This document shows, one piece after another, positions 4,625 to 27,759 of a stretch of DNA of 27,759 nt; positions within the stretch are counted from its first letter, which is position 1; each line of letters opens with the position of its first letter. The notes under the pieces were generated by a model, which saw only the letters and a list, made by a program, of their open reading frames with translations, ran no database searches and had not been told where the DNA came from. The translations under genes and the position numbers were made by a program. This stretch comes from Planctomycetota bacterium (GTDB lineage: Bacteria > Planctomycetota > SZUA-567 > H5-PLA8), in assembly GCA_035628505.1 (NCBI GenBank), contig DASPJR010000027.1:1-27759 (forward strand), in the 5' to 3' direction.

Positions 4625-4676
4625 CGTTCCGGTCTACGCAGCGCAAAACGCCGAGTACGCGGCGCAGCACGATTAT

Positions 4677-4760
4677 AAGGGGTGTTTCAACGTTAAGCAG
4701 TTACCCCTCATCCCGCGTTCGCTTCGCTCACGTCGGCCCTCTCCCCTGAGGGGGGAAGGA
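4677..4760. repeat. REP/MITE-like palindromic intergenic element, copy 1. Homologous to the element at 26150-26295.
   Basis: taaggggtg...gttacccctcatccc and ggccctctcccctgaggggggaagg match the core of the 26.2 kb copy (gttacccctcaccccg...cgctcgctcggccctctccccggaggggagaggg). Confidence 0.55.
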
Positions 4761-4761
4761 A

Positions 4762-5112
4762 TCATACGCCGCGCTCGAATTGCTGGCGTGCCCAACTCCA
4801 CGCTGCGACTGTTTTCGGAAAGCCGACCGTATTCATGGCGAGCAGAATGGCTTGTTCAATCTCATGCTCGCTCGCGCCATTTTGCATCGCGCGGCGAACG
4901 TGGCTGCGCGTGGCTGATTCAAGTCCTGCGCCGACGCAGATTCCGATTTTAATTAACGCGCAGCTTTTTGCATCAAGAGGCCCGGCGGCCTCGACCGCTT
5001 TGGCGACATCCTCGTGAGCCTTCCCGAGTGCGGGAAATTTTGTGACGAAGTCCTTGTACGTTCCCGGCAGCTTCGCGGGCTCTGTCAATTTTTTGTTTCG
5101 GCCTGATGCCAT
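4762..5112 (-). CDS. Carboxymuconolactone decarboxylase family (AhpD-like) protein.
   Basis: 116 aa. CMD-family signature region LIKIGICVGAGLESATRSHVRRAMQNGASEHEIEQAILLA. Lies immediately downstream of mobA on the minus strand. Confidence 0.7.
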   Translation of the reverse strand: MASGRNKKLTEPAKLPGTYKDFVTKFPALGKAHEDVAKAVEAAGPLDAKSCALIKIGICVGAGLESATRSHVRRAMQNGASEHEIEQAILLAMNTVGFPKTVAAWSWARQQFERGV

Positions 5113-5114
5113 GT

Positions 5115-5765
5115 CTATTCTCCCTGCGAGCTGTGTTCGAGAAATCTTTTGAGGGCCTCTGGTGTGTTAACCTGGACGGCACGCGACCAATCGGGCGGCA
5201 ATGCTAGCGCAAAGGGTGAGCTTCGCTCGATCAGGCGCCACATTGCCCGCTGATTCAATGCAATGGCAGCCTCAACGTTAGCGGCAACCCCCACATGATA
5301 AAGGGCCAGCAGCGGCTCCCAGTTTTCACCTTTGAATGCGACGACTTGAGCTCGGTCTGTGCGCGCCTGCATCAACTGAGAAATCCATTCTGGCCGCACC
5401 CCGGCCCAATCGCACGAGACCAGCAGCAGCCATTCCTGTGCGGAATTCCGCGCGGTGCAGTCGCTTAGTGCCGTCTTCAAACCACCCATCGGGCCAAGAC
5501 CCGGAACAGCGTCGGCAATTGTTTCAAAGCCCAGCGAAGCATATTTATCATTTCGATCCGCAACCACGATCAACGAGGACGCAAGCGGGCGCAGCGTGGT
5601 GGCAAGCGACTCCAAAAGCGTGTGCCCGCCGACGCGGGCAAGCGCCTTGTCCGCGCCGAAGCGTGAGCTTTTACCGCCTGCGAGGATGTAAATCGGAAGA
5701 GGTTCGTTCACGCACACAGCGTAATCTGAAAAAGAGGCGGCGGCAACGTTCGTCATTCTCAGCAT
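5115..5765 (-). CDS. mobA: Molybdenum cofactor guanylyltransferase (MobA-like nucleotidyltransferase). True start may be the internal Met at about 5753.
   Basis: IYILAGGKSSRFGADKAL is the MobA/NTP-transferase glycine-rich motif. About 200 aa. Confidence 0.7.
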   Translation of the reverse strand: MLRMTNVAAASFSDYAVCVNEPLPIYILAGGKSSRFGADKALARVGGHTLLESLATTLRPLASSLIVVADRNDKYASLGFETIADAVPGLGPMGGLKTALSDCTARNSAQEWLLLVSCDWAGVRPEWISQLMQARTDRAQVVAFKGENWEPLLALYHVGVAANVEAAIALNQRAMWRLIERSSPFALALPPDWSRAVQVNTPEALKRFLEHSSQGE

Positions 5766-5840
5766 GCTTTTAAAAATCGTGTATGATGCGGGCTCAACGG
5801 TTAAAACTTTTTCGCAGAGCGCGGGCGGGAGAACGGGCGA

Positions 5841-9608: not shown

Positions 9609-11831
9609 ATGGTATTCCTCAACCTCCTGCTCGCCGGCGGTCTGCTCGCTGTCAGCGCGCCGATCATCATCCACCTGCTGCACCGCAGCAAGGTGATGCC
9701 CTACGACTGGGGCGCGATGATGTTCCTGGAAGAGCTCATGGCCGAGCGCGCGCGGCGGCTGCGCATGCAGGAGATCCTGCTGCTGATCGTGCGCGCGCTG
9801 ATCGTTGCCTGTCTCGCCTTCGCACTGATGCGCCCTGCAATCAAGTCGCCGACCGCCGGCGTGCGCTCAGCCGATACGCACACCAGCGCCGTCGTTTTGC
9901 TGGACGATTCCTACTCCATGAACACCGGACACAACCGCAAAGCCTGGCAGGACGCCTGCGACGCGGCGATTAAGTACATCGGCACGCTGCAGAGCGGCGA
10001 TGACGTCTCGGTGATGTTCACCTCGTCGGCCGGAAAAGTTCCGCCGCCCGCAGCGCTGTACGATCACGAACGCGCGCGCGAAATCATCCGCAAGGCCACG
10101 CCACAATACGATAAGACAGATATTCCGCGCGCGCTCTCCGCCGCGCTGCAGCAGCTCGACAGCCAGCACAATCCGCGCCGCGAACTGGTCCTGTTTACCG
10201 ACATGCAGGCCAGCGGATGGGAACTGGCCGACGGCGCGCGCTGGTCGTTCATTGCTGGAACAGTGCGCTCGGCGCGCGTGCGGCCGAACATTATTCTCGC
10301 GGCCACGCCCGAGCTCAAACCGAACAACCTGGCGCTGCTGAAAATCGAACCCTCGCGGCAGGTTGTAGACAGCTTCACGCCCGTCACGTTCAACGTCACG
10401 GTCGCGAATGAAAGCCCCGAGGCCATGCGCGACGCAACGGTAACGTTCATCGTCGACAACGTCGCCAAAGCCACGCGTTCCGTCAAACTCGATCCGGGCG
10501 GACGCGAAGTCGTTGCCTTCGAACATAAATTTGAGCGGCCGGGCTCGCATTATGTCGCCTGCCGCGCACGTTCCTCACAGGACATGCTGGAAGACGATAA
10601 CGAGCTCAATCACAGCGTTGTGGTGATCGACCGCTTGCCGGTGCTGCTCGTCGACGGCGACAAGAAAGACAGGCCGCTGGGCAGCGAGACCGATTTTCTG
10701 CGGCTGGCTCTTTCGCCGCGAGACCGTGACGATCCCAACTGGCGCACCGTTATTGATACTACCGTGATCGACAGCACCGACCTGCGCTATACCGATCTTT
10801 CGAAATTCCGCGTCGTCGTGCTGGCCAATGTCGCTGCACTGCCTGCGGCCGCCGTTTCAGAAATTGAACGCTTTGTCGTCGCGGGCGGCGGTCTGATGAT
10901 CGCGCTCGGCAATAATATACGGCCTGATGCTTACAACCGTGATCTGTTCCGGCAGGGAGCGGGGCTGCTTCCGGTTGCACTGAAGCGGATTGAAGGGGCA
11001 ACGCTGCAGAATGAAAGCTCCGGCGCCGTGCGCCTGGTCGCAGCGGGTTCGTCCGCGCCAAAGCCGGCGCAGCAGGGCCCCGATCCCGTGCATCTGGCCA
11101 GCATCGTCTCCAACGCGCCGGCACTCGATCTCTTCCGCCCGGAAAAGGGGCAGGACTGGTCGCGCGCGCGCGTGCGCAGCTATTTCTCTGTCGCGGCGCC
11201 CGGTGACGGCGTTCGCGCGCTTGCCGCATTTTCGAATGGCGATCCGGTGCTGCTGCAGAAGCGCCTGGGCGAGGGCCGCGTGCTGCTCTTTACCTCGGCG
11301 ATAGACATGGACTGGTCAGATCTGCCCATTCACCCCTTCTATGTGCCGCTCATGCAGAATCTCGTCTTTGATCTGGCTTCTGCCGTTATCCCGCCGCGCA
11401 ATGTTCCCGTCGGGCAAACCATCGCCTACGTCGCCACGGGGCCGAATGCGCTCAAGCCGCACATCCTGATTCCGCCGGGCGGCGAACCGATCACGCTGAA
11501 GACGCAGCGCCAGGGGCAGCTTTCGATCTTCACGCACGAAAACACAAAGACGCCCGGGCTTTACTCGATTGCTCCCGAAGGCGCGCCGCCGGACGAGCGT
11601 GTGTTTTACACCGTGACGGCTGACCGTTCGGACTCCGTGCTCGACCGTCTTGAGCGCGAAGACACCGAAAAACTAGAGCGCGATCTGGGCGCGCACATCG
11701 CCTCGGACTGGAGCGCCATGGCGAGGCTGCTGATGCTGGACGCCGGGAGCTTTGAAATCTCGAAGTATCTATTGATGGCGGCAATCGTCTTCTGCTTCGT
11801 TGAAATCTGGCTCACGCGGAGGTGGGCATGA
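9609..11831 (+). CDS. BatA-like membrane protein: N-terminal double-TM BatA_N domain, vWA domain, GATase1-like/DUF4159-like domain and a C-terminal TM.
   Basis: MVFLNLLLAGGLLAVSAPIIIHLLHRSK is the BatA N-terminal motif. vWA MIDAS motif VVLLDDSYSMN. VVVLANVAALP...FVVAGGGLMIALGN resembles a class-I amidotransferase-like fold. SD gagga upstream. Confidence 0.8.
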   Translation: MVFLNLLLAGGLLAVSAPIIIHLLHRSKVMPYDWGAMMFLEELMAERARRLRMQEILLLIVRALIVACLAFALMRPAIKSPTAGVRSADTHTSAVVLLDDSYSMNTGHNRKAWQDACDAAIKYIGTLQSGDDVSVMFTSSAGKVPPPAALYDHERAREIIRKATPQYDKTDIPRALSAALQQLDSQHNPRRELVLFTDMQASGWELADGARWSFIAGTVRSARVRPNIILAATPELKPNNLALLKIEPSRQVVDSFTPVTFNVTVANESPEAMRDATVTFIVDNVAKATRSVKLDPGGREVVAFEHKFERPGSHYVACRARSSQDMLEDDNELNHSVVVIDRLPVLLVDGDKKDRPLGSETDFLRLALSPRDRDDPNWRTVIDTTVIDSTDLRYTDLSKFRVVVLANVAALPAAAVSEIERFVVAGGGLMIALGNNIRPDAYNRDLFRQGAGLLPVALKRIEGATLQNESSGAVRLVAAGSSAPKPAQQGPDPVHLASIVSNAPALDLFRPEKGQDWSRARVRSYFSVAAPGDGVRALAAFSNGDPVLLQKRLGEGRVLLFTSAIDMDWSDLPIHPFYVPLMQNLVFDLASAVIPPRNVPVGQTIAYVATGPNALKPHILIPPGGEPITLKTQRQGQLSIFTHENTKTPGLYSIAPEGAPPDERVFYTVTADRSDSVLDRLEREDTEKLERDLGAHIASDWSAMARLLMLDAGSFEISKYLLMAAIVFCFVEIWLTRRWA

Positions 11832-17700: not shown

Positions 17701-20700
17701 CATCCAAGCAGCCGAAAGACGAAAAGCGCGAAGCAGCGATGCAGCAGGCCGACGCGATGGTGCGTTCCATGGCCGAGGATCTGCAGACGCAGGCCAAGGA
17801 GATTGCCGCGGAATTCGCCAAGGCAGCCGAGGACGTCAACCGCCCACTCGACGAACGCCGCATCCTCAAAGCGCTCGAGCACAAAGCTGAAATGATGGCG
17901 CTTGAGCCCGCCGGCACACTGGCCAAGCGGCTTGAAGACGCAAAGACGCCGGAGGAACTGGCGAAGACGGAGCAGAAGGTTCCGAACTTCGGAACGAAGG
18001 CCGCCGAGCTGAGCCAGAAAGCCGCCGCGCTGGCACAGGCGACGGAAAAGATGGAACGCGCCGTGGCGCTGCGTGAAGCACTCGAGGAGCTTGCGGAGAC
18101 TGAGCAGGAAGCCCGCGAGGCGCTCGCCGAAGCACCCACGGCAGAGAATGCCGCCAAACAGCAGGAGGCCGCGGCGGAATTGAAGGAGCAGGCCGCGGAG
18201 CTCAAGCACGCCGTCGAGCTGGCGCGCAACAACGTTGACAACAACACGCTGAACCAGGCAGCGCAGCTCGCCGATCGGGCGCTTGCAACCAATGCTGCCG
18301 ATCTTCTGAAAAAGCGCGCGGAACAGGCGCTTGCGGGGGAGCTTGATCCGAAGAAAGATTCCGCGAACGCTCCGGCTCGAAAGGCTGCAGACAAAGATCT
18401 GGCTGAGCAGGCAAAGAAAGCGTCTGAGACCGCAGCCGCTATCAATAAAGAATTAGCGCAGCAGGCCGCGCAGCTCAATGGCGATGTTGCCAACACGCTG
18501 CGTGAAGCCGCGAAAGATCTGCAGGCCAGCTCACAGGCACTCGAAGCCGCCAAGCAGCCGGCCGAGGCTGCCGCGGCGCTTGACCGGGCCGCCGACAAGG
18601 CGATCGAAGCGCAGGCTGAAGCGGCCAATGCCGCCGAGCAGATCGCGCTGAACGCCGAGGCCATGCGCCGCGCCGCGAAGACGGACGCGGAACGCGCGCG
18701 CGCCGATGATATGGTGCGCCTGGCTGCAGCCATTCACAACGAAGTGGAAAAGCAGATCGCGCCACTGGCCGAGCAGCTTGATCGCGCGGAGAAGAACCCC
18801 GATGCCGTCCCCGTGCCGGCTGACGCGCAGGAGCAGGGAAAGAACGAAGCCGCAAAGCTGAACAAGCTCGCCGACATCGCCGCGCAGTTGCAGTCGCCAG
18901 ACGCCAACCAGCAGAAGGCAGCGCACGACGCGATCAATAAGGTGCTCGCCGAGCAAGGCGCGGCCAAGGACGTCGAAGAAGCGCTCAAGCAGGCGCAAGC
19001 GCTCGAGACGGCGGCGGAGCATCTCGAGAAAGCCGAAGCTGCCGCGGCAGCAGGCGCGGAGGCCAAGACCGGTGAAAAGGGCGCTGACAAAGCCGGCGAA
19101 AAAGCCGGAGAGAAGGGCGGCGAGAAAGGCGCAGACGCCGCCGCGAAGCAGGAAGCGGAATTGAAAGCCGCCGAGGCGGCGCTCGCTGAAGCGGTGAAAG
19201 CCGATGCTGCCGAGGCAGGGAAAGAGGCGCTCGCCGAAAGGCTGGGCGAGATGGCCGGTGAGCTGCGCCAGCAAGCCGAGGAACAGCGGCAACTGGCAAA
19301 TCACCTCAACCAGGCGGCTGGGCTCGAGCAGCAGGCGCGCGAGAACCTGAAGAAGGAGGCCCCTGCCCTCGCCCAGTCACTGCGCGACGCACAGAAGAAT
19401 GCGGCCAACGCGGCCAAGGGAAAAGCTCCTGACATCGCGCAGCCGCTCAATAATGCGCAGCAGGGATTGGCGAAGTCCGCCGAAGCATTGCAGGCTGAAG
19501 CTGCAAAGGCAGACGGAACTCCGCTGGAGCAGCTTGCGGCAGATCTTGAAAAAATTGCCAAGGACATCGAGGCGCCCATCGGCGAGCTTGCCGCGGCGCT
19601 GAATAAGGGCGCTGAAGGAACGCAGGATATCCAGCGCGCCGGACGCGAAGCGCGAAATGCCGCCGGACGCGCAAAGGAACTTGCCGCTGAGATGCAACGC
19701 GCCGAACGCGCAGCGGATCTGGCCGCAGCCGAGGCGCAGGAAGCCCAGGGCGAGCGGGCCGATCTGGAAGCGCAGGTCAAGGCAGCGATTGCTGCGCTTG
19801 AAAATCAGGGCGGCGCGCCCGAAGCGGAATTGGCGGCGCTGAAAAAGGCTGCTGCATCCGGCGAGCCGAAGAGCGCTCAGGGAAATCCCGAGGGAGGAGA
19901 AAAACAGGCGCAAAGCGGAGCGCAGAAAGGCGAAGCGTCCGCCCAGAATCCGAAAAGCGGACAGAATCTACAAAGCGGGCAGAATCCACAAAGCGGGCAG
20001 AACCCGCAAAGCGCCCAGAACGCGCAGAATCCAGGGCAAAATGCCCAGCACGGTCAAACTCCGCAGAGTGCTCAGAATCCCCAGAGCGGCCAAAATCCGC
20101 AGAGCGGCCAGAATGCCCAAAGCGGGCAGAAGAGTGCTCAAAGCGGACAGAGCGGACAGAAGCCCTCCTCTGCTGCGGCTGGCGAGCCTACGCAGGAATC
20201 CATGCAACTCGAAGCCGAGCGCGCGCGCGCCGACAGCGAACGCCTGCAGCAGATGGCCGCGCAGATGGAAAAAATCGCTGCATCGCTGAGCCCGGCCGGC
20301 GCGCAATCGTCGCAGAAGCCTGCATCGGACAAGGCCAGTACCACACCTGCGGCCGATGCGCTTGAAGCAGTCGAAGACGCCAAGGCAGCGCTGGCGACCG
20401 GCGATAAAGCCGGCGCGGCCGAAGCGATCAATGAAGCGCAGGAATTTCTTGAGCAGGCTGCCGAGGCCGCTCGCGCGGAAGCGACTGGAATGAAAACGCC
20501 GGGCAAGTCGGAAGCCGAAGCGCTCGCCGACGGCGAACCGAGCCCCAAGAGCAAAGGCACGGGACAAGGCAAGAGCCAGGCGCAGGGACAGGGCCAGGGC
20601 AAGACGCCCGCGCAGAAAGCCGCTGCCCAGCAGTCCAAAGGCGCGCTCGCTCCCGAACCGCCGGCTGGAATTCCGATCGACAAGGCCACGTGGAACCGCC

Positions 20701-22089: not shown

Positions 22090-22339
22090 ACACAGTTAGT
22101 TAGGAGAGTAGCAATTCGATGAACTGGGTCATGGCACAAATAAGCGGACATACACAGTACCTGTCCTATGCGGATCAGCGGACGGGTATCGTCGTATCGT
22201 TTAGTTTGCCGTGCCTCGGTCGTAAAGCTGAAAACAATCTGAACGCCCCCGAGACCGGGAGGCCCGCACCCTAGAAGGTTGAGTTCATGTGGAGATTCCA
22301 CAAACCTTCCAGGGTGCAAGCTCTGGAAGGTTTTTTTTT
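22090..22339 (+). ncRNA. Candidate small RNA of about 250 nt with unassigned family. Relatively AT-rich and ends at an intrinsic terminator.
   Basis: No ORF of at least 60 aa on the plus strand here (track minimum). Bounded by a promoter-like site and by terminator ccttccag-ggtgcaagct-ctggaagg followed by T8 (22304-22339). GC content is visibly lower than the flanking DNA. Confidence 0.4.
22304..22339 (+). terminator. Rho-independent terminator. 8-bp GC-rich stem CCTTCCAG/CTGGAAGG, a 10-nt loop, then TTTTTTTT.
   Basis: Perfect inverted repeat 22305-22312 / 22323-22330, followed by a T8 run at 22331-22338. Confidence 0.75.
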
Positions 22340-22500
22340 ACCCGAGCGAAAAGGAGTTCAACATGCAGGTACGTGCTGACTAAACAGTAGTTCCTGATTT
22401 CGACTCGCGATGAAACGTGAAAACGCAGCGACTGGCGTTGCCGCGAGAGGAGTGTTGTTGTCACTTTTCTAAGGAGGTTCATGCAGTCGCCGTTCGGTTT

Positions 22501-22574
22501 GCGGATGTAGCTCAGTGGCAGAGTACGAGCATGCCAAGCTCGAGACGCGGGTCCGATTCCCGCCTTCCGCACCA
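22501..22574 (+). tRNA. tRNA-Gly(GCC). CCA is encoded. T-loop TCCGATT is non-canonical (C55).
   Basis: Cloverleaf: acceptor GCGGATG/CTTCCGC, D-arm GCTC-AGTGGCA-GAGT, anticodon arm CGAGC-aTGCCAa-GCTCG. Confidence 0.7.
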
Positions 22575-22634
22575 AGCTCAGCTTCACTCACCGGGGAGAC
22601 GCGGAGGCGCTGAGAACAGATTGGAAAAGTTCGG

Positions 22635-22705
22635 GCCGCGGTGTGAGGGTCACGCGCCTCTCCCGTAAAGAGGCTGAGCAGGTTCAACTCCTGCCTGCGG
22701 CTCCA
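22635..22705 (+). pseudogene. Degenerate tRNA-like element related to Cys, with a truncated D-arm. Has acceptor GCCGCGG/CTGCGGC, discriminator U, CCA and T-arm GCAGG-TTCAACT-CCTGC.
   Basis: Anticodon-like hairpin CCTCT-CCCGTAA-AGAGG has C33. The D region is only 15 nt. Its 3' end, CTGCGGC-T-CCA, mirrors that of the Cys tRNA at 25014. Confidence 0.35.
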
Positions 22706-22712
22706 AACAGAT

Positions 22713-22740
22713 GTGACGGGTGACGGGTGGCGGGTAACGA
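22713..22740. repeat. Tandem heptamer repeat, GTGACGG family x4.
   Basis: gtgacgg gtgacgg gtggcgg gtaacga. The same family recurs at 26109-26142. Confidence 0.7.
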
Positions 22741-22777
22741 CACCCAGACTCAAGACTCCCGACTCATGACTATTGTT

Positions 22778-22848
22778 TGCGGTGTCGCGTAATGGTAGCG
22801 CGCCTGCCTGTTAAGCAGGAAGTAGAGGTTCGAATCCTCTCTCCGCAG
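22778..22848 (+). tRNA. tRNA-Asn(GTT).
   Basis: U1-A72 acceptor TGCGGTG/CTCCGCA, discriminator G73. Anticodon arm CCTGC-cTGTTAa-GCAGG. T-arm AGAGG-TTCGAAT-CCTCT. Confidence 0.65.
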
Positions 22849-22856
22849 TGTGAAGT

Positions 22857-22931
22857 GGGGCGATGGTGAAATCAGGATCATACGACGTTCGCATCGTCGC
22901 GTCCCGGGTGCAACTCCCGGTCGCTCCACCA
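22857..22931 (+). tRNA. tRNA-Ala(CGC)-like. Has G3:U70, A73 and CCA, but a non-canonical T-loop TGCAACT (G55) and an unusual D-arm. Possibly non-functional.
   Basis: Acceptor GGGGCGA/TCGCTCC. Anticodon arm CGACG-tTCGCAt-CGTCG. T-arm CCGGG-TGCAACT-CCCGG. Total 75 nt. Confidence 0.45.
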
Positions 22932-22940
22932 GAGAAAAAC

Positions 22941-23013
22941 GCCTTCGAGGTGTTAGCGGCAGCACAGCGGGTTCTTACCCCGTGAGGTGGAGGTTCAAGT
23001 CCTCCCGGAGGCA
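22941..23013 (+). tRNA. tRNA-Lys(CTT).
   Basis: Acceptor GCCTTCG/CGGAGGC, discriminator A73. D-arm GTGT-TAGCGGCA-GCAC. Anticodon arm GCGGG-tTCTTAc-CCCGT. T-arm GGAGG-TTCAAGT-CCTCC. Confidence 0.7.
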
Positions 23014-23021
23014 TGGAAGGC

Positions 23022-23093
23022 AGCTCTTAGCTCTTGGCTGTTGGCTCTTGGAGTTGCGTTGCAATGTCTGTTCCAAGAGCCAAGAGCTAAGAG
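23022..23093. repeat. Hairpin built from GGCTCTT-family heptamers.
   Basis: 5' arm gctcttagctcttggctgttggctcttgga, an 18-nt loop, 3' arm tccaagagccaagagctaagagc. Confidence 0.7.
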
Positions 23094-23111
23094 CCTAGAG
23101 CCGCAACAGCC

Positions 23112-23184
23112 GCGTTCGTAGCTCGAGCGGCAGAGCAGCCGCCTTTTAAGCGGCAGGGTGTGGGTTCGAGCCCCACCGGACGCA
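23112..23184 (+). tRNA. tRNA-Lys(TTT).
   Basis: Acceptor GCGTTCG/CGGACGC, discriminator A73. D-arm GCTC-GAGCGGCA-GAGC. Anticodon arm GCCGC-cTTTTAa-GCGGC. T-arm GTGGG-TTCGAGC-CCCAC. Confidence 0.8.
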
Positions 23185-23190
23185 TGAAGA

Positions 23191-23261
23191 TGCCGGGTCG
23201 TCCAGCGGCAGGACGCCTGACTCTGAATCAGGAAAGCGAGGTTCGAATCCTTGCCCGGCAA
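23191..23261 (+). tRNA. tRNA-Gln(CTG).
   Basis: U1-A72 acceptor TGCCGGG/CCCGGCA, as in bacterial Gln. D-arm GTCC-AGCGGCA-GGAC. Anticodon arm CCTGA-cTCTGAa-TCAGG. T-arm CGAGG-TTCGAAT-CCTTG. Confidence 0.75.
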
Positions 23262-23282
23262 TGGAAGGGCCAGTAGGCGGAA

Positions 23283-23372
23283 GGCAGTGGGCAGGAGGCA
23301 GTGGGCAGGGAACAAAAGAAGACTGAGTGGACGGTGCAGAACGCTGAGCCTCACTCCTGGCTCAGTTTTCCG
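23283..23372. repeat. GGCAGTG/GGCAGGA heptamer tandem at 23283-23310, followed by a terminator-like hairpin GCTGAGCC-tcactcct-GGCTCAGT plus TTTT at 23344-23372.
   Basis: ggcagtgggcaggaggcagtgggcaggg, then gctgagcctcactcctggctcagtttt. Confidence 0.5.
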
Positions 23373-23398
23373 TACTGCTCATTCAGAGGGAACGCAGG

Positions 23399-23469
23399 TG
23401 GCCTGTCGTCCAATGGGAGGACGGCGGACTTTGAATCCGCCTATCGAGGTTCGAATCCTCGCGGGCCAG
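23399..23469 (+). tRNA. tRNA-Gln(TTG).
   Basis: U1-A72 acceptor TGGCCTG/CGGGCCA, discriminator G73. D-arm GTCC-AATGGGA-GGAC. Anticodon arm GCGGA-cTTTGAa-TCCGC. T-arm CGAGG-TTCGAAT-CCTCG. Confidence 0.8.
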
Positions 23470-23517
23470 TAACGCGCGTTGCGAACTCGCGGGGGCAGTG
23501 CTGACGGAGAGCGACAG

Positions 23518-24072
23518 ATGAAAACGCCATTTTTAATTGGAGATCGCATCTGCCTGCGGCCGCTGGAGCGCGAGGACGCGCGCGTGCTGGAGTTTTACAT
23601 CAACGATCCGGATGTCACACGCACGCTGCAGGCATACCGCCCGATGAATCTGCAGATCGAGGAAGACTGGATCGCGGATCTCTACAAGAAGGAAAGCGAC
23701 ATCGTGCTCGGTATCGCGATCAAGAGCAGCGACAAGCTGATCGGTGCGACCGGTCTGCATCGACTGGAATTCAAAGACAGGCGCGCGGAGTTCGGAATCA
23801 GCATCGGCGCGAAGGAAGAGTGGGACAAAGGTTACGGCACCGAGGCCACGCGGCTAATCGTCGGCTACGGCTTCGAGACGCTGAACCTCAACAGGATCAG
23901 CTTGCGCGTGTACGAGCACAATCCTCGAGCGCAGCGCGCGTACGAGAAGGCAGGCTTCAAAAAGGAAGGCGTGCTGCGCAAGGAAGTCTACAGGCTCGGC
24001 CGCTATTGGGACACGATCGTGATGGGCATATTGCGCGAGGAATGGGACGCCCTCGCGGCAAGCAAGAAGTGA
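23518..24072 (+). CDS. GNAT N-acetyltransferase of the RimJ/RimL-like (Acetyltransf_3) family, embedded in the tRNA array.
   Basis: 184 aa. WDKGYGTEATRLIVGYGFETLNLNRISLRVYEHNPRAQRAYEKAGFKKEGVLRKE matches the RimJ/L core. SD ggaga sits 8 nt before ATG 23518. Confidence 0.8.
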   Translation: MKTPFLIGDRICLRPLEREDARVLEFYINDPDVTRTLQAYRPMNLQIEEDWIADLYKKESDIVLGIAIKSSDKLIGATGLHRLEFKDRRAEFGISIGAKEEWDKGYGTEATRLIVGYGFETLNLNRISLRVYEHNPRAQRAYEKAGFKKEGVLRKEVYRLGRYWDTIVMGILREEWDALAASKK

Positions 24073-24076
24073 GGAC

Positions 24077-24107
24077 GTGGGGCAGCGCGAACGAACGCCT
24101 GCCCCAC
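24077..24107 (+). terminator. GC-rich stem-loop immediately after the GNAT stop codon. No U-tract follows, so it may be a terminator or a processing hairpin.
   Basis: gtggggcag-cgcgaacgaacgc-ctgccccac. Confidence 0.35.
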
Positions 24108-24119
24108 GCAGGGCGCGAG

Positions 24120-24190
24120 CGGGCGTTAGTGCCGGTGGCACTGGCGAGTCTTATAAACCCGCTGGCCGGGTTCAACTCCCGGGCGCCCGA
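24120..24190 (+). pseudogene. Degenerate tRNA-like element. Acceptor CGGGCGT/GCGCCCG, T-arm CCGGG-TTCAACT-CCCGG, a tight GTGC-CGGTG-GCAC D hairpin and an anticodon-like loop CTTATAA with a mismatched stem.
   Basis: Manual fold; the D-arm and anticodon stem are irregular. Its T-arm is closely related to that of the Ala-like tRNA at 22857. Confidence 0.3.
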
Positions 24191-24202
24191 CTGAACTGAT
24201 GA

Positions 24203-24274
24203 GCCGGGATGGCGTAGGGGTCTGCGCGTCCGCCTGAAGAGCGGAAGGTGATCGTTCGACTCGATCTTCCGGCA
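24203..24274 (+). tRNA. tRNA-Phe(GAA).
   Basis: Acceptor GCCGGGA/TTCCGGC, discriminator A73. Anticodon arm TCCGC-cTGAAGa-GCGGA. T-arm GATCG-TTCGACT-CGATC. Confidence 0.75.
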
Positions 24275-24284
24275 TGTGAACGAC

Positions 24285-24365
24285 GGTTTCTGGTTTGAAG
24301 TTTCTGGTCTCTGGCTAATTGCAGCTTGCACTGAACCAGAAACTAGAAACCAGAAACCTGAAACC
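24285..24365. repeat. Hairpin built from CCAGAAA/GGTTTCT heptamers.
   Basis: 5' arm ggtttctggtttgaagtttctggtctctgg. 3' arm ccagaaactagaaaccagaaacctgaaacc. Confidence 0.75.
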
Positions 24366-24373
24366 GAATTTAA

Positions 24374-24446
24374 CGGGGCGTAGCGTAGCGGCTAACGCGC
24401 CTGCGTCGGAAGCAGGAGAACGTCGGTTCGAATCCGGCCGCTCCGA
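24374..24446 (+). tRNA. tRNA-Pro(CGG).
   Basis: C1-G72 acceptor CGGGGCG/CGCTCCG, discriminator A73, as expected for Pro. D-arm GCGT-AGCGGCTA-ACGC. Anticodon arm CCTGC-gTCGGAa-GCAGG. T-arm GTCGG-TTCGAAT-CCGGC. Confidence 0.75.
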
Positions 24447-24460
24447 TGGGAGAACGACGG

Positions 24461-24547
24461 CTTCTGGTTTGAGGTTTCTAGTTTCTAGTTAACTGCTGAT
24501 CGCGCGAAACCAGAAACAGGAAACCAGAAACCAGAAACAGAGGTTTG
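24461..24547. repeat. Hairpin built from CCAGAAA/GGTTTCT heptamers.
   Basis: 5' arm cttctggtttgaggtttctagtttctagtt. 3' arm gaaaccagaaacaggaaaccagaaaccagaaacag. Confidence 0.75.
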
Positions 24548-24622
24548 CGGGACGTAGCTCAGCTTGTTGAGAGCGCCTGGTTTGGAACCAGGAGGTCGCA
24601 GGTTCAAATCCTGCCGTTCCGA
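24548..24622 (+). tRNA. tRNA-Pro(TGG).
   Basis: C1-G72 acceptor CGGGACG/CGTTCCG, discriminator A73. D-arm GCTC-AGCTTGTTGA-GAGC. Anticodon arm CCTGG-tTTGGAa-CCAGG. T-arm GCAGG-TTCAAAT-CCTGC. Confidence 0.8.
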
Positions 24623-24670
24623 TTATGCAAAAACGTCAGCAGCAACCGACAGCGGCTGAGGTGAACTGGA

Positions 24671-24745
24671 CGGACGGTGTTGTAGGGGGCTGCAGATCTG
24701 CCTGATAAGCAGAAGGTGGAGGTTGGACTCCTCCCCGTCCGACCA
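24671..24745 (+). tRNA. tRNA-Ile(GAT)-like. CCA is encoded. Unusual C1-G72 acceptor and a non-canonical T-loop TTGGACT (G56).
   Basis: Acceptor CGGACGG/CCGTCCG. Anticodon arm TCTGC-cTGATAa-GCAGA. T-arm GGAGG-TTGGACT-CCTCC. Confidence 0.55.
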
Positions 24746-24760
24746 GAAAGGAGCGAAGAC

Positions 24761-24832
24761 GTCTCTGTCAGCTAGTGGCAAGCTACCGCGCTTTCAACGC
24801 GGCAACCGTGGGTTCGATTCCCCGTAGAGACA
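24761..24832 (+). tRNA. tRNA-Glu(TTC). T-stem is imperfect (GTGGG/CCCCG).
   Basis: Acceptor GTCTCTG/TAGAGAC. D-arm AGCT-AGTGGCA-AGCT. Anticodon arm CCGCG-cTTTCAa-CGCGG. T-loop TTCGATT. Confidence 0.6.
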
Positions 24833-24833
24833 T

Positions 24834-24907
24834 GTGTCCTGGGTGTGACGATTGCACGCGAGAATGTGAGTCTCGTAGAGCCGGTTTGACTCCGGCAGGA
24901 CACCCCA
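24834..24907 (+). tRNA. tRNA-His(GTG). CCA is encoded and the discriminator is C73. Starts 1 nt after tRNA-Glu. The -1 position is T, so G-1 is not encoded.
   Basis: Acceptor GTGTCCT/AGGACAC. D-arm GTGT-GACGATT-GCAC. Anticodon arm CGAGA-aTGTGAg-TCTCG. T-arm GCCGG-TTTGACT-CCGGC (non-canonical T56). Confidence 0.6.
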
Positions 24908-24913
24908 AAGGTG

Positions 24914-25001
24914 TGGTTTCTGGTTTCGAGTTTCTGGTTTCTGGTTTCTGGTTAAGGGCCGATTGCACTGAACCAGAAACCAGAAACTAAGAACCAGAAA
25001 C
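24914..25001. repeat. Hairpin built from CCAGAAA/GGTTTCT heptamers.
   Basis: 5' arm tggtttctggtttcgagtttctggtttctggtttctggtt. 3' arm aaccagaaaccagaaactaagaaccagaaacc. Confidence 0.75.
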
Positions 25002-25013
25002 CGTAGTCAGGAG

Positions 25014-25088
25014 GGCCGCGTGGCCGAGCACATAGGCACCCGCCTGCAGAGCGGGGCAACGCAGGTGAAAATCCTGCCGCGGCCTCCA
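25014..25088 (+). tRNA. tRNA-Cys(GCA). U73 discriminator and encoded CCA. T-loop TGAAAAT is non-canonical.
   Basis: Acceptor GGCCGCG/CGCGGCC. Anticodon arm CCCGC-cTGCAGa-GCGGG. T-arm GCAGG-TGAAAAT-CCTGC. Three-bp D-stem. Confidence 0.6.
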
Positions 25089-25206
25089 GATGTTCTGAGG
25101 TGGGCGATCGCGATCTGGATAGCGCTGTTTGTGGTCAGCATTGTAAGTGCGATTTGCGCGATGTTTTGAGGAAGCGCCCGATGCGAGCAGAGCTCGCATT
25201 CGGGAG

Positions 25207-25285
25207 GGCTGCGTGGCTGAGCAGCGAAGGCAACCGTTGAAATGTCAACGGGAGAGGTTGGGTGCAATTCCCTTCCGCAGCCTCA
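25207..25285 (+). pseudogene. Cys-related tRNA-like pseudogene. The anticodon arm is replaced by a 7-bp stem with a tetraloop.
   Basis: Acceptor GGCTGCG/CGCAGCC, then U and CA. Same D-region as the Cys tRNA (GCTG-AGCAGCGA-AGGC). Hairpin CCGTTGA-aatg-TCAACGG is not a 7-nt anticodon loop. T-arm is degenerate. Confidence 0.35.
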
Positions 25286-25294
25286 GCCGAAAAT

Positions 25295-25368
25295 GCTCTC
25301 GAAGGCGAAGCAGTGGAGCCGCCACTCTGTCGAAGTGGATGAAGCCGGTGCGACTCCGGCCGGGAGCG
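25295..25368 (+). tRNA. tRNA-Asp(GTC). Discriminator G73. T-loop TGCGACT is non-canonical (G55).
   Basis: Acceptor GCTCTCG/CGGGAGC. Anticodon arm CCACT-cTGTCGa-AGTGG. T-arm GCCGG-TGCGACT-CCGGC. Confidence 0.55.
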
Positions 25369-25373
25369 TGAAA

Positions 25374-25437
25374 CGATTGCGGATTGCGAATTTCGGATTG
25401 CGGATTGGCTTTCAATCCCAAATCCGCAATCCGAAAT
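25374..25437. repeat. Hairpin built from CGGATTG/CAATCCG heptamers.
   Basis: 5' arm gattgcggattgcgaatttcggattgcggattgg. 3' arm cccaaatccgcaatccgaaat. Confidence 0.7.
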
Positions 25438-25442
25438 AAAGA

Positions 25443-25515
25443 AGCGGGTGGCTAGGCCTGGGGGTCTGGCGGGTCTCATAAGCCTGCAATGGCGGTTCGA
25501 TTCCGCTGCCCGCAA
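25443..25515 (+). tRNA. tRNA-Met(CAT) candidate. Has a 1:72 mismatch, an A73 discriminator and an initiator-like D-loop (GCCTGG), but the D-stem is irregular.
   Basis: Anticodon arm CGGGT-cTCATAa-GCCTG. T-arm GGCGG-TTCGATT-CCGCT. 3' end GCCCGCA-A resembles the bacterial initiator 3' end. Confidence 0.4.
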
Positions 25516-25523
25516 TGGGAATG

Positions 25524-25596
25524 GGTTTCTAGTTTCTGGTTTCTCGTTTCTGGTTCAGTGCAGTCGCCGTTAACCAGAAACCAGAAACCAGAAACC
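25524..25596. repeat. Hairpin built from CCAGAAA/GGTTTCT heptamers.
   Basis: 5' arm ggtttctagtttctggtttctcgtttctggtt. 3' arm aaccagaaaccagaaaccagaaacc. Confidence 0.75.
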
Positions 25597-25704
25597 GCAG
25601 TTTAGAGAGGCTGAGCTGCCGGGGCCAGCGGCGCCCGGGACCTTGCGTGAGCAATCGGTCTCGTGTGTTCCGAACATGGCATGTGACGAAGGCGGCGACG
25701 CGAG

Positions 25705-25781
25705 CGCCATATAGCTCATCTGGATAGAGCATCGGTCGAAAGAACCGACGGTAGTGGGTTCGACTCCCACTATGGCTACCA
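25705..25781 (+). tRNA. tRNA-like gene with canonical D- and T-arms and an encoded CCA, but a non-canonical anticodon loop CGAAAGA (G33; formal anticodon AAA) and a C1:U72 mismatch. Identity is unresolved and it may be a pseudogene.
   Basis: D-arm GCTC-ATCTGGATA-GAGC. Anticodon stem TCGGT/ACCGA. T-arm GTGGG-TTCGACT-CCCAC. 3' end TATGGCT-A-CCA. Confidence 0.4.
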
Positions 25782-25805
25782 CTGGCAAGGGTCTGAAAAA
25801 CCCGA

Positions 25806-25829
25806 GCAGGTTCAAATCCTGCAACCGCC
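25806..25829 (+). other. Orphan tRNA 3' fragment. Its T-arm GCAGGTTCAAATCCTGC is identical over 17 nt to the T-arm of tRNA-Pro(TGG) at 24598-24614.
   Basis: No upstream acceptor, D-arm or anticodon arm can be folded. Confidence 0.6.
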
Positions 25830-26108
25830 TGTTAAGCGGATCGAGGCTGAAGGGGGGCGAGAGTTGCGACTGACCGGCTGACGCGAAGTGCTCAGATAGA
25901 TTTCACGCAGCAGCACGAGAGGGCGCTTTGCAGCGCGCGGATTCGCTGAGGAACAAACCGCCGGACGCCCGGCGAACTCGACGGCTGGCCTGTACTGGAG
26001 CCGCACGAGGACGCCGCCGCCGAACGCGGGAGTAGCCGCAGCTCAAGTATCGCTCCGCGCCCGACGTGTGGACAGCACAGCAACTCGCCTCCTGGATGCC
26101 ATTACTGC

Positions 26109-26142
26109 TGTGACGGGTGACGAGTGGCGGGTGACGGGTGGC
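26109..26142. repeat. Tandem heptamer repeat, GTGACGG family x5.
   Basis: gtgacgg gtgacga gtggcgg gtgacgg gtggc. Confidence 0.7.
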
Positions 26143-26149
26143 AATCGCG

Positions 26150-26295
26150 GAAGAGTTTCCCTCTCCCCTCCGGGGAGAGGGCGGACATGAGCGGAGCGAA
26201 TGCCGGGTGAGGGGTTCGCGTTTGCTGCAAGAGACGGTTACCCCTCACCCCGGACTCGCTGCGCTCGCTCGGCCCTCTCCCCGGAGGGGAGAGGG
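26150..26295. repeat. REP/MITE-like nested palindromic element, copy 2. Two CCCTCTCCCC-nnn-GGGGAGAGGG palindromes flank a GGGTGAGGGGT...ACCCCTCACCC palindrome.
   Basis: Palindromes at 26165-26187, 26208-26263 and 26271-26293. Core is homologous to 4677-4760. Confidence 0.6.
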
Positions 26296-26344
26296 ATCGC
26301 CGGGTGCACGCAAGTTTGGTAACGAAGCAGGAGGGGAGGAAACG

Positions 26345-27454
26345 ATGATGGCTATGCGCAAGTTCAAGATCGGCACGCACGAACGCGGCCTGCTGTTCGA
26401 AGAAAACGAGTTCAAGGTGATGCTCGACCCGGGCCGCCACTGGTTCTTCGATCCGCTGTGGAAGCTTCGCGTGGACAAGGTCTCTGTCCGCGAGGCGCAG
26501 CTTCGCCACAAGGACCTGGACGTCATCGTGAAGTCCGGCGCGCTGAAGGACGTGGCGAAGGTCGTCGACCTGAAGGATCACGAACGCGCGGTGGTGTGGG
26601 TTGACGGCCGCGTGGAAACGGTTCTGAAGCAGGGCCTGTACGCCTTCTGGACGGTCTTCCACGACGTCCGCGTGGAAGTCTTCGACGCGCGCGAAGTCCG
26701 CTTCGAGCACGCCGAGCTTCCGGCGATCCTGCAGGCGCGCGACGCCGGCACGCCGCTTGACGTCTACACGGTTGAGGTCGGCTACACGGGCCTCTTCTTC
26801 AAGGACGGCGAGTTCAAGTCGGCGCTGAAGCCGGGCACGCATGCGTTCTGGAAGGGCGTCAACCGCGTGCGCATCCACAACGTGGATCTGCGCGAGCAGG
26901 TCTGCGACGTGGCGGGCCAGGAAATCGTGACGGCCGACAAGGTCACGCTGCGCCTGAACGCCGTCGTGACGTACCGCGTAGCGGACGCGCTGAAGGCGGT
27001 GACGACGGTGGATGACTACAAGCAGGCGCTGTACCGCGAGGCGCAGCTTGCTCTGCGCGCGGTGGTCGGTACCCGCGAGCTCGACACGCTGCTGAGCGAG
27101 AAGGACAGTGTGGCGAAGGAGCTGGAAGGCCTGCTGAAGAACCGCGCGACGGCGTTCGGCGTGGAAGTGAACACGCTGGGCATCAAGGACATCATCCTGC
27201 CGGGCGAGATGAAGGACTTGATGAACAAGGTGACGGAAGCGAAGAAGGCTGCTGAAGCCACGCTCATCACGCGCCGCGAAGAAACGGCCGCGATGCGCAT
27301 GCAGGCCAACACGGCCAAGATCCTCGAGAACAACCCGACGCTCATGCGCCTGCGTGAGCTCGAAGTGCTCGAGAAGATCTCGGAAAAGTCGAACCTGAAG
27401 GTTGTGCTCGGCGACCAGAAGGGTCTCGTCGACCGTGTGGTGAAGGTGCTGTAA
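26345..27454 (+). CDS. SPFH/band-7 (stomatin/prohibitin/flotillin-like) domain protein.
   Basis: 369 aa. SPFH core ...VTADKVTLRLNAVVTYRVADALKAVTTVDDYKQALYREAQLALRAVVGTRELDTLLSEKDSVAKELEG... SD ggaggggagga before ATG 26345. The longer upstream ORF extension, which runs through the REP element, was rejected. Confidence 0.8.
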   Translation: MMAMRKFKIGTHERGLLFEENEFKVMLDPGRHWFFDPLWKLRVDKVSVREAQLRHKDLDVIVKSGALKDVAKVVDLKDHERAVVWVDGRVETVLKQGLYAFWTVFHDVRVEVFDAREVRFEHAELPAILQARDAGTPLDVYTVEVGYTGLFFKDGEFKSALKPGTHAFWKGVNRVRIHNVDLREQVCDVAGQEIVTADKVTLRLNAVVTYRVADALKAVTTVDDYKQALYREAQLALRAVVGTRELDTLLSEKDSVAKELEGLLKNRATAFGVEVNTLGIKDIILPGEMKDLMNKVTEAKKAAEATLITRREETAAMRMQANTAKILENNPTLMRLRELEVLEKISEKSNLKVVLGDQKGLVDRVVKVL

Positions 27455-27485
27455 AGCGCCGGGTTCGCCCGGTGCCAGGAAGACA

Positions 27486-27552
27486 AGCTGCTGCTGGTTG
27501 CCGGAGCTATGAGCTCTCGCGAGGGCGCGACGGATCGCCCGGCAACCAGCAG
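27486..27552 (+). other. Long stem-loop. The 15-bp stem GCTGCTGGTTGCCGG/CCGGCAACCAGCAGC has a 34-nt loop, no U-tract follows, and it sits between the SPFH gene and tRNA-Leu.
   Basis: Perfect inverted repeat 27489-27503 / 27538-27552. Confidence 0.5.
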
Positions 27553-27561
27553 CGCTCCGAA

Positions 27562-27647
27562 GCTCTCGTGGCGGAATTTTTGGAAGACGCGGCCGGCTCA
27601 AACCCGGCAGGCCCTGGGCCGTGGAGGTTCGAATCCTCTCGAGAGCA
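27562..27647 (+). tRNA. tRNA-Leu(CAA), type II with a long variable arm.
   Basis: Acceptor GCTCTCG/CGAGAGC, discriminator A73. D-region GTGGCGGAATTTTTGGAAGACGCG is Leu-like. Anticodon arm GCCGG-cTCAAAc-CCGGC. Variable hairpin GGCCC-tg-GGGCC. T-arm GGAGG-TTCGAAT-CCTCT. Confidence 0.8.
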
Positions 27648-27650
27648 TGG

Positions 27651-27686
27651 TGTTGGCTCTTGGCTCTTGGCTCTTGGCTCTTGGAG
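27651..27686. repeat. Tandem GGCTCTT heptamer x4-5 immediately 3' of tRNA-Leu. Same module as after tRNA-Lys(CTT) at 23036-23053.
   Basis: tgttggctcttggctcttggctcttggctcttggag. Confidence 0.8.
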
Positions 27687-27759
27687 AACGACGAGATTAA
27701 TGGGCAGGCTCTTGTGGCGGAAATGGGAGACGCGGCCGTTTTAAACACGGCTGGCCTGT

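Follow-up and report, generated by a model that had tools for sequence, protein, structure and literature searches.

Tandem repeats of seven-nucleotide units have been described as the most abundant class of long simple sequence repeats (SSRs) in most bacterial genomes, and polymerase slippage has been proposed as their source (Mrazek 2007 survey, cited in PMC4679880 and PMC4692102). In Xanthomonas, GGGAATC repeats are intergenic, typically comprise four units, vary in length between close relatives and in some cases form inverted pairs (PMC4692102), and the TAACTGA repeats common to Beggiatoaceae, cyanobacteria, and Bacteroidetes are likewise intergenic and have no evident transfer mechanism (PMC4679880). 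The short tandemly repeated repetitive (STRR) elements of cyanobacteria include 7-bp repeats that fold into hairpins in the gap from hupS to hupL, for which transcript stabilisation or translational coupling was suggested (PMC2670836), as well as insertions in the RNase P RNA gene (Vioque 1997). The tRNA arrays of Entamoeba contain short tandem repeats between their genes that vary between strains (PMC2652664; cited in PMC4758250). Here, we analyzed a stretch of 27,759 nucleotides from a Planctomycetota bacterium (GCA_035628505.1, contig DASPJR010000027.1, positions 1 to 27,759; hereafter the window), in which a tRNA array on the + strand (22501..27647; 16 tRNAs found by ARAGORN and 3 by Rfam alone) has heptamer runs in its spacers.

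We consider it probable that these elements are heptanucleotide microsatellites of the STRR or long-SSR type, made by slippage, locally duplicated, and co-transcribed as spacer hairpins. Their likeness to the STRR sequences of heterocystous cyanobacteria extends to the 7-nt units, the presence of several unrelated families in one genome, the intergenic location within transcription units, and the intercistronic hairpins, whereas the window differs in its lineage (Planctomycetota), in its G+C-rich genome, in the concentration of the repeats in a tRNA array, and in the units themselves. With heptameric long SSRs such as those of Xanthomonas it shares the over-representation of period 7, the intergenic position, about four units per run, variable length, and some stem-loops, but in Xanthomonas a single G-rich family, able in principle to form G-quadruplexes, predominates, while the window has five or six neighbouring families that mostly form hairpins. 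Entamoeba tRNA arrays are alike in the microsatellite-like, strain-variable repeats of their spacers and unlike in being eukaryotic, with individually transcribed Pol III genes, other unit sizes, and no hairpin architecture reported there. A limited literature search, which is not proof of novelty, found heptamer repeats reported neither for Planctomycetota nor for the tRNA arrays of bacteria. To this known class, reported as the commonest long simple repeats of bacteria, the window contributes a new lineage and, with the bacterial tRNA array, a new setting.

Tandem Repeats Finder (TRF) returned period-7 arrays at every position for which the original prediction had named heptamer runs. The 17 period-7 rows in the window include GTGACGG (22713-22739 and 26110-26140), GGCTCTT/CCAAGAG (23023-23051 and 23073-23102), GGCTCTT (27653-27684), GGCAGTG (23283-23308), GGTTTCT/AGAAACC (24334-24365, 24474-24490, 24506-24539, 24914-24953, 24971-25002, 25524-25555, and 25572-25596), CGGATTG/AATCCGA (25375-25407 and 25414-25437), and an additional AGACTCA run that had not been predicted (22746-22771). 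A periodicity scan of the region 22500-27759 counted 12 period-7 runs, compared with a mean of 0.015 and a maximum of 1 in 200 dinucleotide shuffles, and zero runs with periods of 4-6 or 8-12. Period-7 runs were absent from the first 22.7 kb of the window, and every run is non-coding, located between tRNA genes or open reading frames (ORFs). The claim that several sequence-unrelated heptamer families share one architecture was borne out. An assembly artefact can be excluded because an independent Logan assembly is 100% identical across 23210-24598, two hairpins included. The contiguous 7-nt units also differ from the 25-40-nt repeats with unique spacers that define CRISPR arrays. A G-quadruplex reading of the unpaired G-rich runs was dropped, as the GTGACGG runs have three GGG tracts each, short of the four G3 tracts needed.

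The array, which also encloses a GNAT acetyltransferase gene (start ~23519 to 24072) and an SPFH/band-7 gene (start ~26345 to 27454), holds both paired and unpaired elements, all described here on the + strand. The runs had been predicted to be usually arranged as inverted pairs; this held for 6 of the 10 spacers, which fold into stems of 23-37 bp, and failed for four, where the runs are unpaired. Folding is given as z, the energy in standard deviations from that of shuffled sequence, and the hairpins range from -3.7 to -7.4. A GGCTCTT/AAGAGCC hairpin (23020..23104; 34 pairs, z -6.05) fills the spacer between tRNA-Lys(CTT) and tRNA-Lys(TTT). Four hairpins are built from GGTTTCT/AGAAACC: H1 (24284..24366; 30 pairs, z -6.2) lies between tRNA-Phe(GAA) and tRNA-Pro(CGG) and is preceded by the linker GAACGACG at 24278-24285; H2 (24452..24547; 34 pairs, z -3.65) starts with the same linker and separates tRNA-Pro(CGG) from tRNA-Pro(TGG); H3 (24912..25005; 37 pairs, z -7.35), with a loop homologous to those of H1 and H4, is found 5' of tRNA-Cys; and H4 (25524..25596; 26 pairs, z -5.9) is found 3' of tRNA-Met. 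Directly 5' of the same tRNA-Met there is a CGGATTG/CAATCCG hairpin (25375..25437; 23 pairs, z -4.5). The unpaired elements begin with a G-rich GTGACGG run of ~4 units 3' of tRNA-Thr(CGT) (22713..22740; spacer fold z +0.34) and an AGACTCA run of 3.7 units 5' of tRNA-Asn (22746..22771), followed by a G-rich run of alternating GGCAGTG and GGCAGGA units (23271..23309; period 7/14) 3' of tRNA-Gln(CTG). A second GTGACGG run (26109..26142; 4.4 units, z +0.9) is not tRNA-adjacent and lies ~200 nt upstream of the SPFH gene, while a perfect GGCTCTT run of 4.6 units (27651..27686) stands 3' of tRNA-Leu and is followed by GAACGACG, ~70 nt before the end of both window and contig. Folding of the four unpaired stretches (22713-22771, 23271-23309, 26109-26142, and 27651-27686) was no better than that of shuffles (z >= 0).

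The hairpins nearly fill their spacers, leaving 2-11 nt to the flanking tRNA on at least one side. Their stems, 23-37 pairs long with few mismatches, are predicted to be long and continuous enough for RNase III (about two helical turns or more). No evidence was found for mirrored or compensatory unit variants between the arms, and arms with a permuted unit order fold equally well, the real order ranking 6/24, 19/24, 36/120, 4/24, 3/6, and 6/6 among the permutations. The pairing rests on the repetition of one unit in both arms. Across tRNA-Pro(CGG), moreover, the 3' arm of H1 is complementary to H2's 5' arm (24334-24490); a long-range stem enclosing this tRNA, reminiscent of the processing stalks of rRNA, is possible, though the local hairpins should form first during transcription. 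In an Rfam scan of the window, tRNAs alone passed the gathering threshold; below it, the heptamer hairpins matched miRNA precursor families on both strands, as generic long hairpins do, so that such spacer hairpins are a source of spurious miRNA-precursor matches in annotation. They may also break metagenome assemblies at tRNA arrays.

Under the microsatellite explanation, replication slippage in this Planctomycetota lineage would create the runs and lengthen or shorten them 7 nt at a time, some of them would turn into inverted pairs, and whole hairpin modules would spread locally by duplication or recombination. They would accumulate in the array because it is long, gene-dense, non-coding, and co-transcribed, with no tie to tRNAs as such. 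Since the array is tightly packed and on the same strand, its spacers are probably transcribed in a polycistronic precursor, in which each inverted pair would fold locally into a 23-37-bp stem occupying almost the whole spacer. Transcription would read through, given that no U-tract follows the stem. RNase P plus a 3' endonuclease, be it RNase Z or some other 3' processing activity, would release the tRNAs from such a precursor and thereby cut off the hairpins; the stems would also be long enough to serve as RNase III substrates. Any benefit, such as preventing tRNA mispairing or shielding precursor ends, would probably be modest. The hairpins are not required for processing, because many neighbouring tRNAs are 6-15 nt apart with no hairpin between them.

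Homologous arrays allowed a comparison of corresponding spacers. Contigs of relatives were found through homologues of the gene just upstream of the array, and arrays with the gene order of the window occur in L149, L150, and L151, the shared order being Gly, Thr, Asn ... Lys, Gln, GNAT, Ile(TAT), Pro, Ile(GAT) ... Cys ... Met ... SPFH. A GNAT-based search of metagenome contigs yielded 80 loci and one further array, that of L151, which is near-identical to L149. The placement of the elements in tRNA spacers was confirmed. These arrays and that of L233 carry heptamer elements in their spacers too. In L149, a CGGATTG hairpin homologous to the one at 25375-25437 stands directly upstream of tRNA-Met; the copy-number comparison that had been proposed gave 4-5 units per arm in the window and ~2 in L149, and the loops differ. 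The hairpin 3' arm together with tRNA-Met is 92.7% identical between the two, which makes it their best conserved DNA segment. L149 further has AATTTTG hairpins after two Thr tRNAs and, following Ile(GAT), a GGTTTCT-like run. The window and L233 share an AGACTC motif in the spacer from Thr(CGT) to Asn, and the family content of this spacer differs among the window, L149, and L233. The variation of copy number between homologous spacers and the turnover of families at one spacer fit slippage in 7-nt steps; a common generating mechanism of this kind, suggested by the original prediction, is likely. Local spread of whole modules is supported by the homologous loops of H1-H4, with that of H4 flipped, and by the module common to the 3' flanks of tRNA-Lys(CTT) and tRNA-Leu.

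The alternative that the hairpins are dedicated punctuation of the tRNA array, i.e., selected RNase III/RNase E processing sites or insulators that keep neighbouring tRNAs from misfolding together, was the main idea of the original prediction and appears unlikely. The close fit of the hairpins to their spacers speaks in its favour, as do the RNase III length of the stems (the length needed being general knowledge), the occurrence of heptamer elements in the spacers of 3/3 arrays for which DNA was available, the confinement of all window runs to the array, and the retention of the pre-tRNA-Met hairpin between arrays at 92.7% identity. However, 4/10 spacers have unpaired, non-folding runs, many tRNA pairs in both the window and L149 are separated by 6-15 nt with no hairpin, and the equal folding of permuted units gives no sign of selection for mirrored variants. 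The same architecture and some of the same units also occur between protein genes in L145, a related 471-kb Planctomycetota contig with 72% identity in the neighbouring gene and no tRNA in the 21 kb examined. There, an operon for sugar metabolism, with its genes on one strand, has heptamer runs in most of its longer gaps, and two more runs lie inside a giant ORF. Hairpins in four gaps of this operon (GGAGTCT/AGACTCC, GTCATTG/CAATGAC, GAGTTCT/AGAACTC, and GAGGCTT/AAGCCTC) have z values of -6.3 to -8.8 and the G+T-rich arm first, and several of them stand before the next start codon, with a Shine-Dalgarno-like sequence in between. Two L145 units match the window exactly, CCAAGAG (equal to GGCTCTT of the window) and AGACTC, the latter as part of an operon hairpin, and AAATCCG is one mismatch from CGGATTG; by our estimate, chance would give ~0.04 exact matches among ~1170 unit classes. 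In L147, a GNAT-SPFH module with a single tRNA has a CATTGGT/ATGACCA hairpin directly after the GNAT gene. Judging from L145 and L147, the hairpin design with its differing heptamers appears to be, in this group, a trait of intergenic gaps inside transcription units and not of tRNAs. The unit of STRR2, which we take to be TTGGTCA, would equal that of the CATTGGT/GTCATTG family of L145 and L147.

Beyond close relatives, the proposed link of the family to tRNAs was not upheld. A scan for three exact GGTTTCT units in one genome per species found at least 119 loci in Acidobacteriota (many of them Thermoanaerobaculia), Planctomycetota, Bacteroidota, Verrucomicrobiota, Omnitrophota, and other groups, and a viral collection contained 21 further (GGTTTCT)3 loci. 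Among the 140 matches listed (119 genome and 21 viral), ARAGORN found a tRNA in 5 and within 200 nt in 1, leaving 139/140 with no tRNA nearby, a point against array punctuation, and many of the matches listed are inverted pairs in ordinary intergenic gaps. The presence of one heptamer across distant phyla is reminiscent of TAACTGA and applies to both (GGTTTCT)n and (CGGATTG)n; TAACTGA, however, is almost always direct and just upstream of start codons, and heptamers related to it were rare as repeats in that study. GGTTTCT was rejected as a special cross-phylum heptamer, because, unlike in the TAACTGA case, composition-matched controls were about as frequent: the viral collection had 11 loci of (GTGTTCT)3 and 18 of (GTTGTCT)3, vs. 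21 of GGTTTCT and 21 of GGCTCTT, with CGGATTG alone somewhat higher at 61. Some contigs that lack tRNAs contain, in 13-15 kb, 11-13 runs belonging to 6-9 families and are thus about as densely occupied as the window array. Outside the genome of the window itself, the repeats are thus widespread and largely have no association to tRNAs, the outcome that the original prediction had named as speaking against it.

Four viral-classed IMG/VR contigs (L290, L300, L278, and L294) are G+C-rich and have about one heptamer run per kb from many families, with CGGATTG dominant and run lengths clustering near 32 nt (~4.5 units). Their sample numbers (3300050028, 3300032053, 3300031772, and 3300050015) are near 3300050046 of P0131, a relative at 80%, and these contigs and P0131 may come from one study. 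The four contigs could be bacterial DNA wrongly classed as viral, or else phages that belong to the same lineage.

Several observations weigh against the microsatellite explanation. The segment of hairpin and tRNA-Met conserved at 92.7% hints at constraint. The transcription, in vivo folding, and cleavage of the hairpins on which it draws are predictions. Four relatives (L143, L146, L231, and L232) have 0-2 runs in 12-21 kb, abundance varying between genomes, and the present organism was examined on one contig. Moreover, the window runs are restricted to the array, with none in ~0.85-2 kb of other non-coding sequence; under uniform spread, and for runs that are in fact not independent, the probability of this restriction is ~0.0003 with the gene model used and, by our estimate, ~0.02 if the uncertain stretch 4625-5840 is counted as coding.

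Another alternative is a small non-autonomous mobile element (REP/BIME, Correia, or MITE-like) inserting between tRNAs. REP/BIME, ERIC, and Neisseria Correia elements are transcribed intergenic hairpins that alter mRNA stability and are in some cases cleaved by RNase III; their copies follow a family consensus and move by transposition, through RAYT transposases or enzymes of the IS type. They resemble the window elements as dispersed extragenic palindromes, co-transcribed in operons, with stems of RNase III length, and offer the closest parallel for how the latter might work, but the arms in the window are microsatellites of unrelated sequence, with no transposase in evidence. Compatible with insertion are the four GGTTTCT hairpins with homologous loops in both orientations: the loops of H1-H4 are homologous, and H4 aligns with H1 and H3 solely in reverse orientation, which fits insertion in both orientations or loop inversion via recombination between arms. 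The GGCTCTT module is found at two sites 4.6 kb apart, and the module predicted to be shared by the 3' flanks of tRNA-Lys(CTT) and tRNA-Leu was recovered with 82% mean column identity over 78 alignment columns. A shared linker had also been predicted; GAACGACG does abut three heptamer runs (at 24278, 24452, and 27686), while its count in the window is not above chance. Against a mobile element, arm-to-arm recombination would also flip a loop, the arms differ in length by steps of 7 nt, no sequence relationship links the five or six families, and the flanks read have no target-site duplications and no terminal repeats beyond the heptamer runs. The loops of GGTTTCT hairpins are furthermore not conserved in other genomes, those of other families likewise not being shared, and no transposase or RAYT gene was present among the 10 window proteins scanned. 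On balance, a mobile element appears very improbable.

A further possibility is that the repeats are recombination substrates at the DNA level that shuffle, duplicate, or delete tRNA modules. The array is absent at the locus in L143/L144 (a 90% relative), L231 (80%), L145, and L146, and present in the 77% relative L233; the contig of P0131, which has the GNAT gene and gene-poor gaps, probably carries it as well. An HNH endonuclease gene was also noted on the P0131 contig. Present in some close relatives and missing from others at one chromosomal position, directly after a prenyltransferase-like gene, the whole array, GNAT and SPFH genes included, behaves in the manner of an accessory island. 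On a finer scale, L149 and L151 (99.8% identical) are one tRNA module apart (L151 2596-2732): L149 has Lys(CTT) alone, L151 has Lys(CTT) and Lys(TTT), and the fragment L150 starts with Lys(TTT). As the two arrays differ by this module, tRNA modules are gained or lost between near-identical strains. This turnover and presence or absence at one locus, together with the modules common to the flanks of unrelated tRNAs, would agree with recombination at the repeats. No heptamer run was seen at the L149/L151 difference, however, whose ends appear to fall in the Lys/Gln tRNA region; in the 21 kb of L145 seen, its operon hairpins had no link to gene shuffling, and recombination is a side effect of any repeat and not proof of function. 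We regard this role as very improbable.

Arm order bears on whether the hairpins are intrinsic terminators or attenuators that split the array into transcription units, as their long, stable stems might suggest. The G+T-rich arm comes first in 6/6 hairpins of the window and in five hairpins of relatives, and, because the G+U-rich arm leads and A and C predominate in the 3' arms, the stem is not followed by a U-tract. A terminator scan called no heptamer stem, its sole match nearby being a separate 5-bp stem (24900-24914) whose tail is formed by the first GGTTTCT units of H3, and the next tRNAs start 2-11 nt after the stems, all of which makes termination in the array extremely unlikely. In other phyla the opposite order does end U-rich near gene ends: (AGAAACC)n-loop-(GGTTTCT)n is common in Acidobacteriota loci, with a U-rich final arm, and these hairpins look like bidirectional terminators, as predicted from their structure. 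L145 also has one A+C-first hairpin, at a convergent gene junction. Among 64 hairpins surveyed in G+C-rich loci, those with the A+C-rich arm first were in 12 co-directional, 1 convergent, and 4 divergent contexts, and those with the G+T-rich arm first in 13 co-directional, 4 convergent, and 1 divergent, counts that rely on a GC3-based strand caller contradicted by eye in at least one case. Classifying gene context from ORFs is noisy, because the repeats contain no stop codons.

These strands could be joined in a broader reading, in which heptamer hairpins punctuate polycistronic RNAs in some Planctomycetota, with arm order setting read-through vs. termination and the units being maintained; we hold this to be a doubtful proposition. 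If true, it would cover tRNA arrays and protein operons alike, and the job of REP/BIME elements would be done by hairpins generated by microsatellite expansion instead of transposition. The G+U-first order would mean read-through with a processing or stability signal, and the A+C-first order a bidirectional terminator, while the repertoire of units would be small, shared, and kept by selection or by a heptad-reading protein. Regardless of the explanation, the locus and its relatives are a compact case, with families side by side, homologous spacers differing in copy number, and an operon counterpart. They lend themselves to asking about processing of such hairpins, for instance by RNase III, about a stabilising or insulating effect on parts of polycistronic RNAs, and about arm order as a switch between read-through and termination.

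The array has further features outside the heptamer elements. The tRNAs found by Rfam alone are at 22857-22928, 25295-25368, and 27562-27647 (+ strand). Most tRNAs that precede hairpins have no encoded CCA, the next letters being TGG or TGT, and CCA is encoded in some array members (Gly, Ile-GAT, Cys, and Phe-AAA). Odd members at 24120-24191, 25195-25290, 25295-25368, 25705-25781, and 25785-25830 include Ile(TAT), Phe(AAA), a partial T-arm-like piece, and low-scoring tRNA-like sequences found by Rfam or by eye alone. Between tRNA-Gln(CTG) and tRNA-Gln(TTG), in the middle of the array, a non-heptamer hairpin (23323-23386; z -3.4) with the inner stem GCTGAGCC...GGCTCAG is followed by TTTT, which makes it a possible terminator or attenuator within the array. 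A ~140-nt near-perfect palindrome (26158-26296) lying upstream of the SPFH gene has a minimum free energy of -118.7 kcal/mol (z -10.2); its ends are small palindromes, CCCTCTCCCC-NNN-GGGGAGAGGG, and the short motif occurs twice in L232, so that it looks like a second, non-heptamer repeat family of the lineage.

In the 600-nt leader from the last protein gene to the first tRNA, a block of ~100 nt (22240-22345, core 22258-22355) is near-identical to L233 at ~11430-11535, and the surrounding leader aligns far worse. The block ends with a strong terminator-like hairpin and nine T (22302-22343; z -4.5), had no match in Rfam, and may be a small RNA or attenuator preceding the array. The first 22 kb of the window encode, on the + strand, a PPDK-like kinase, a MoxR-DUF58-BatA-VWA operon, a 2037-aa protein, and the prenyltransferase-like protein. 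A phage origin of the window was ruled out, as these upstream genes are chromosomal, PHROGs gave no structural-gene matches, and the contig is assigned to a Planctomycetota metagenome-assembled genome. Within the 2037-aa ORF, an 18-nt imperfect tandem repeat of ~10 copies (19944-20160), in a stretch where the AT skew is very strong, presumably translates into a repeat of six residues and has no relation to the heptamers.

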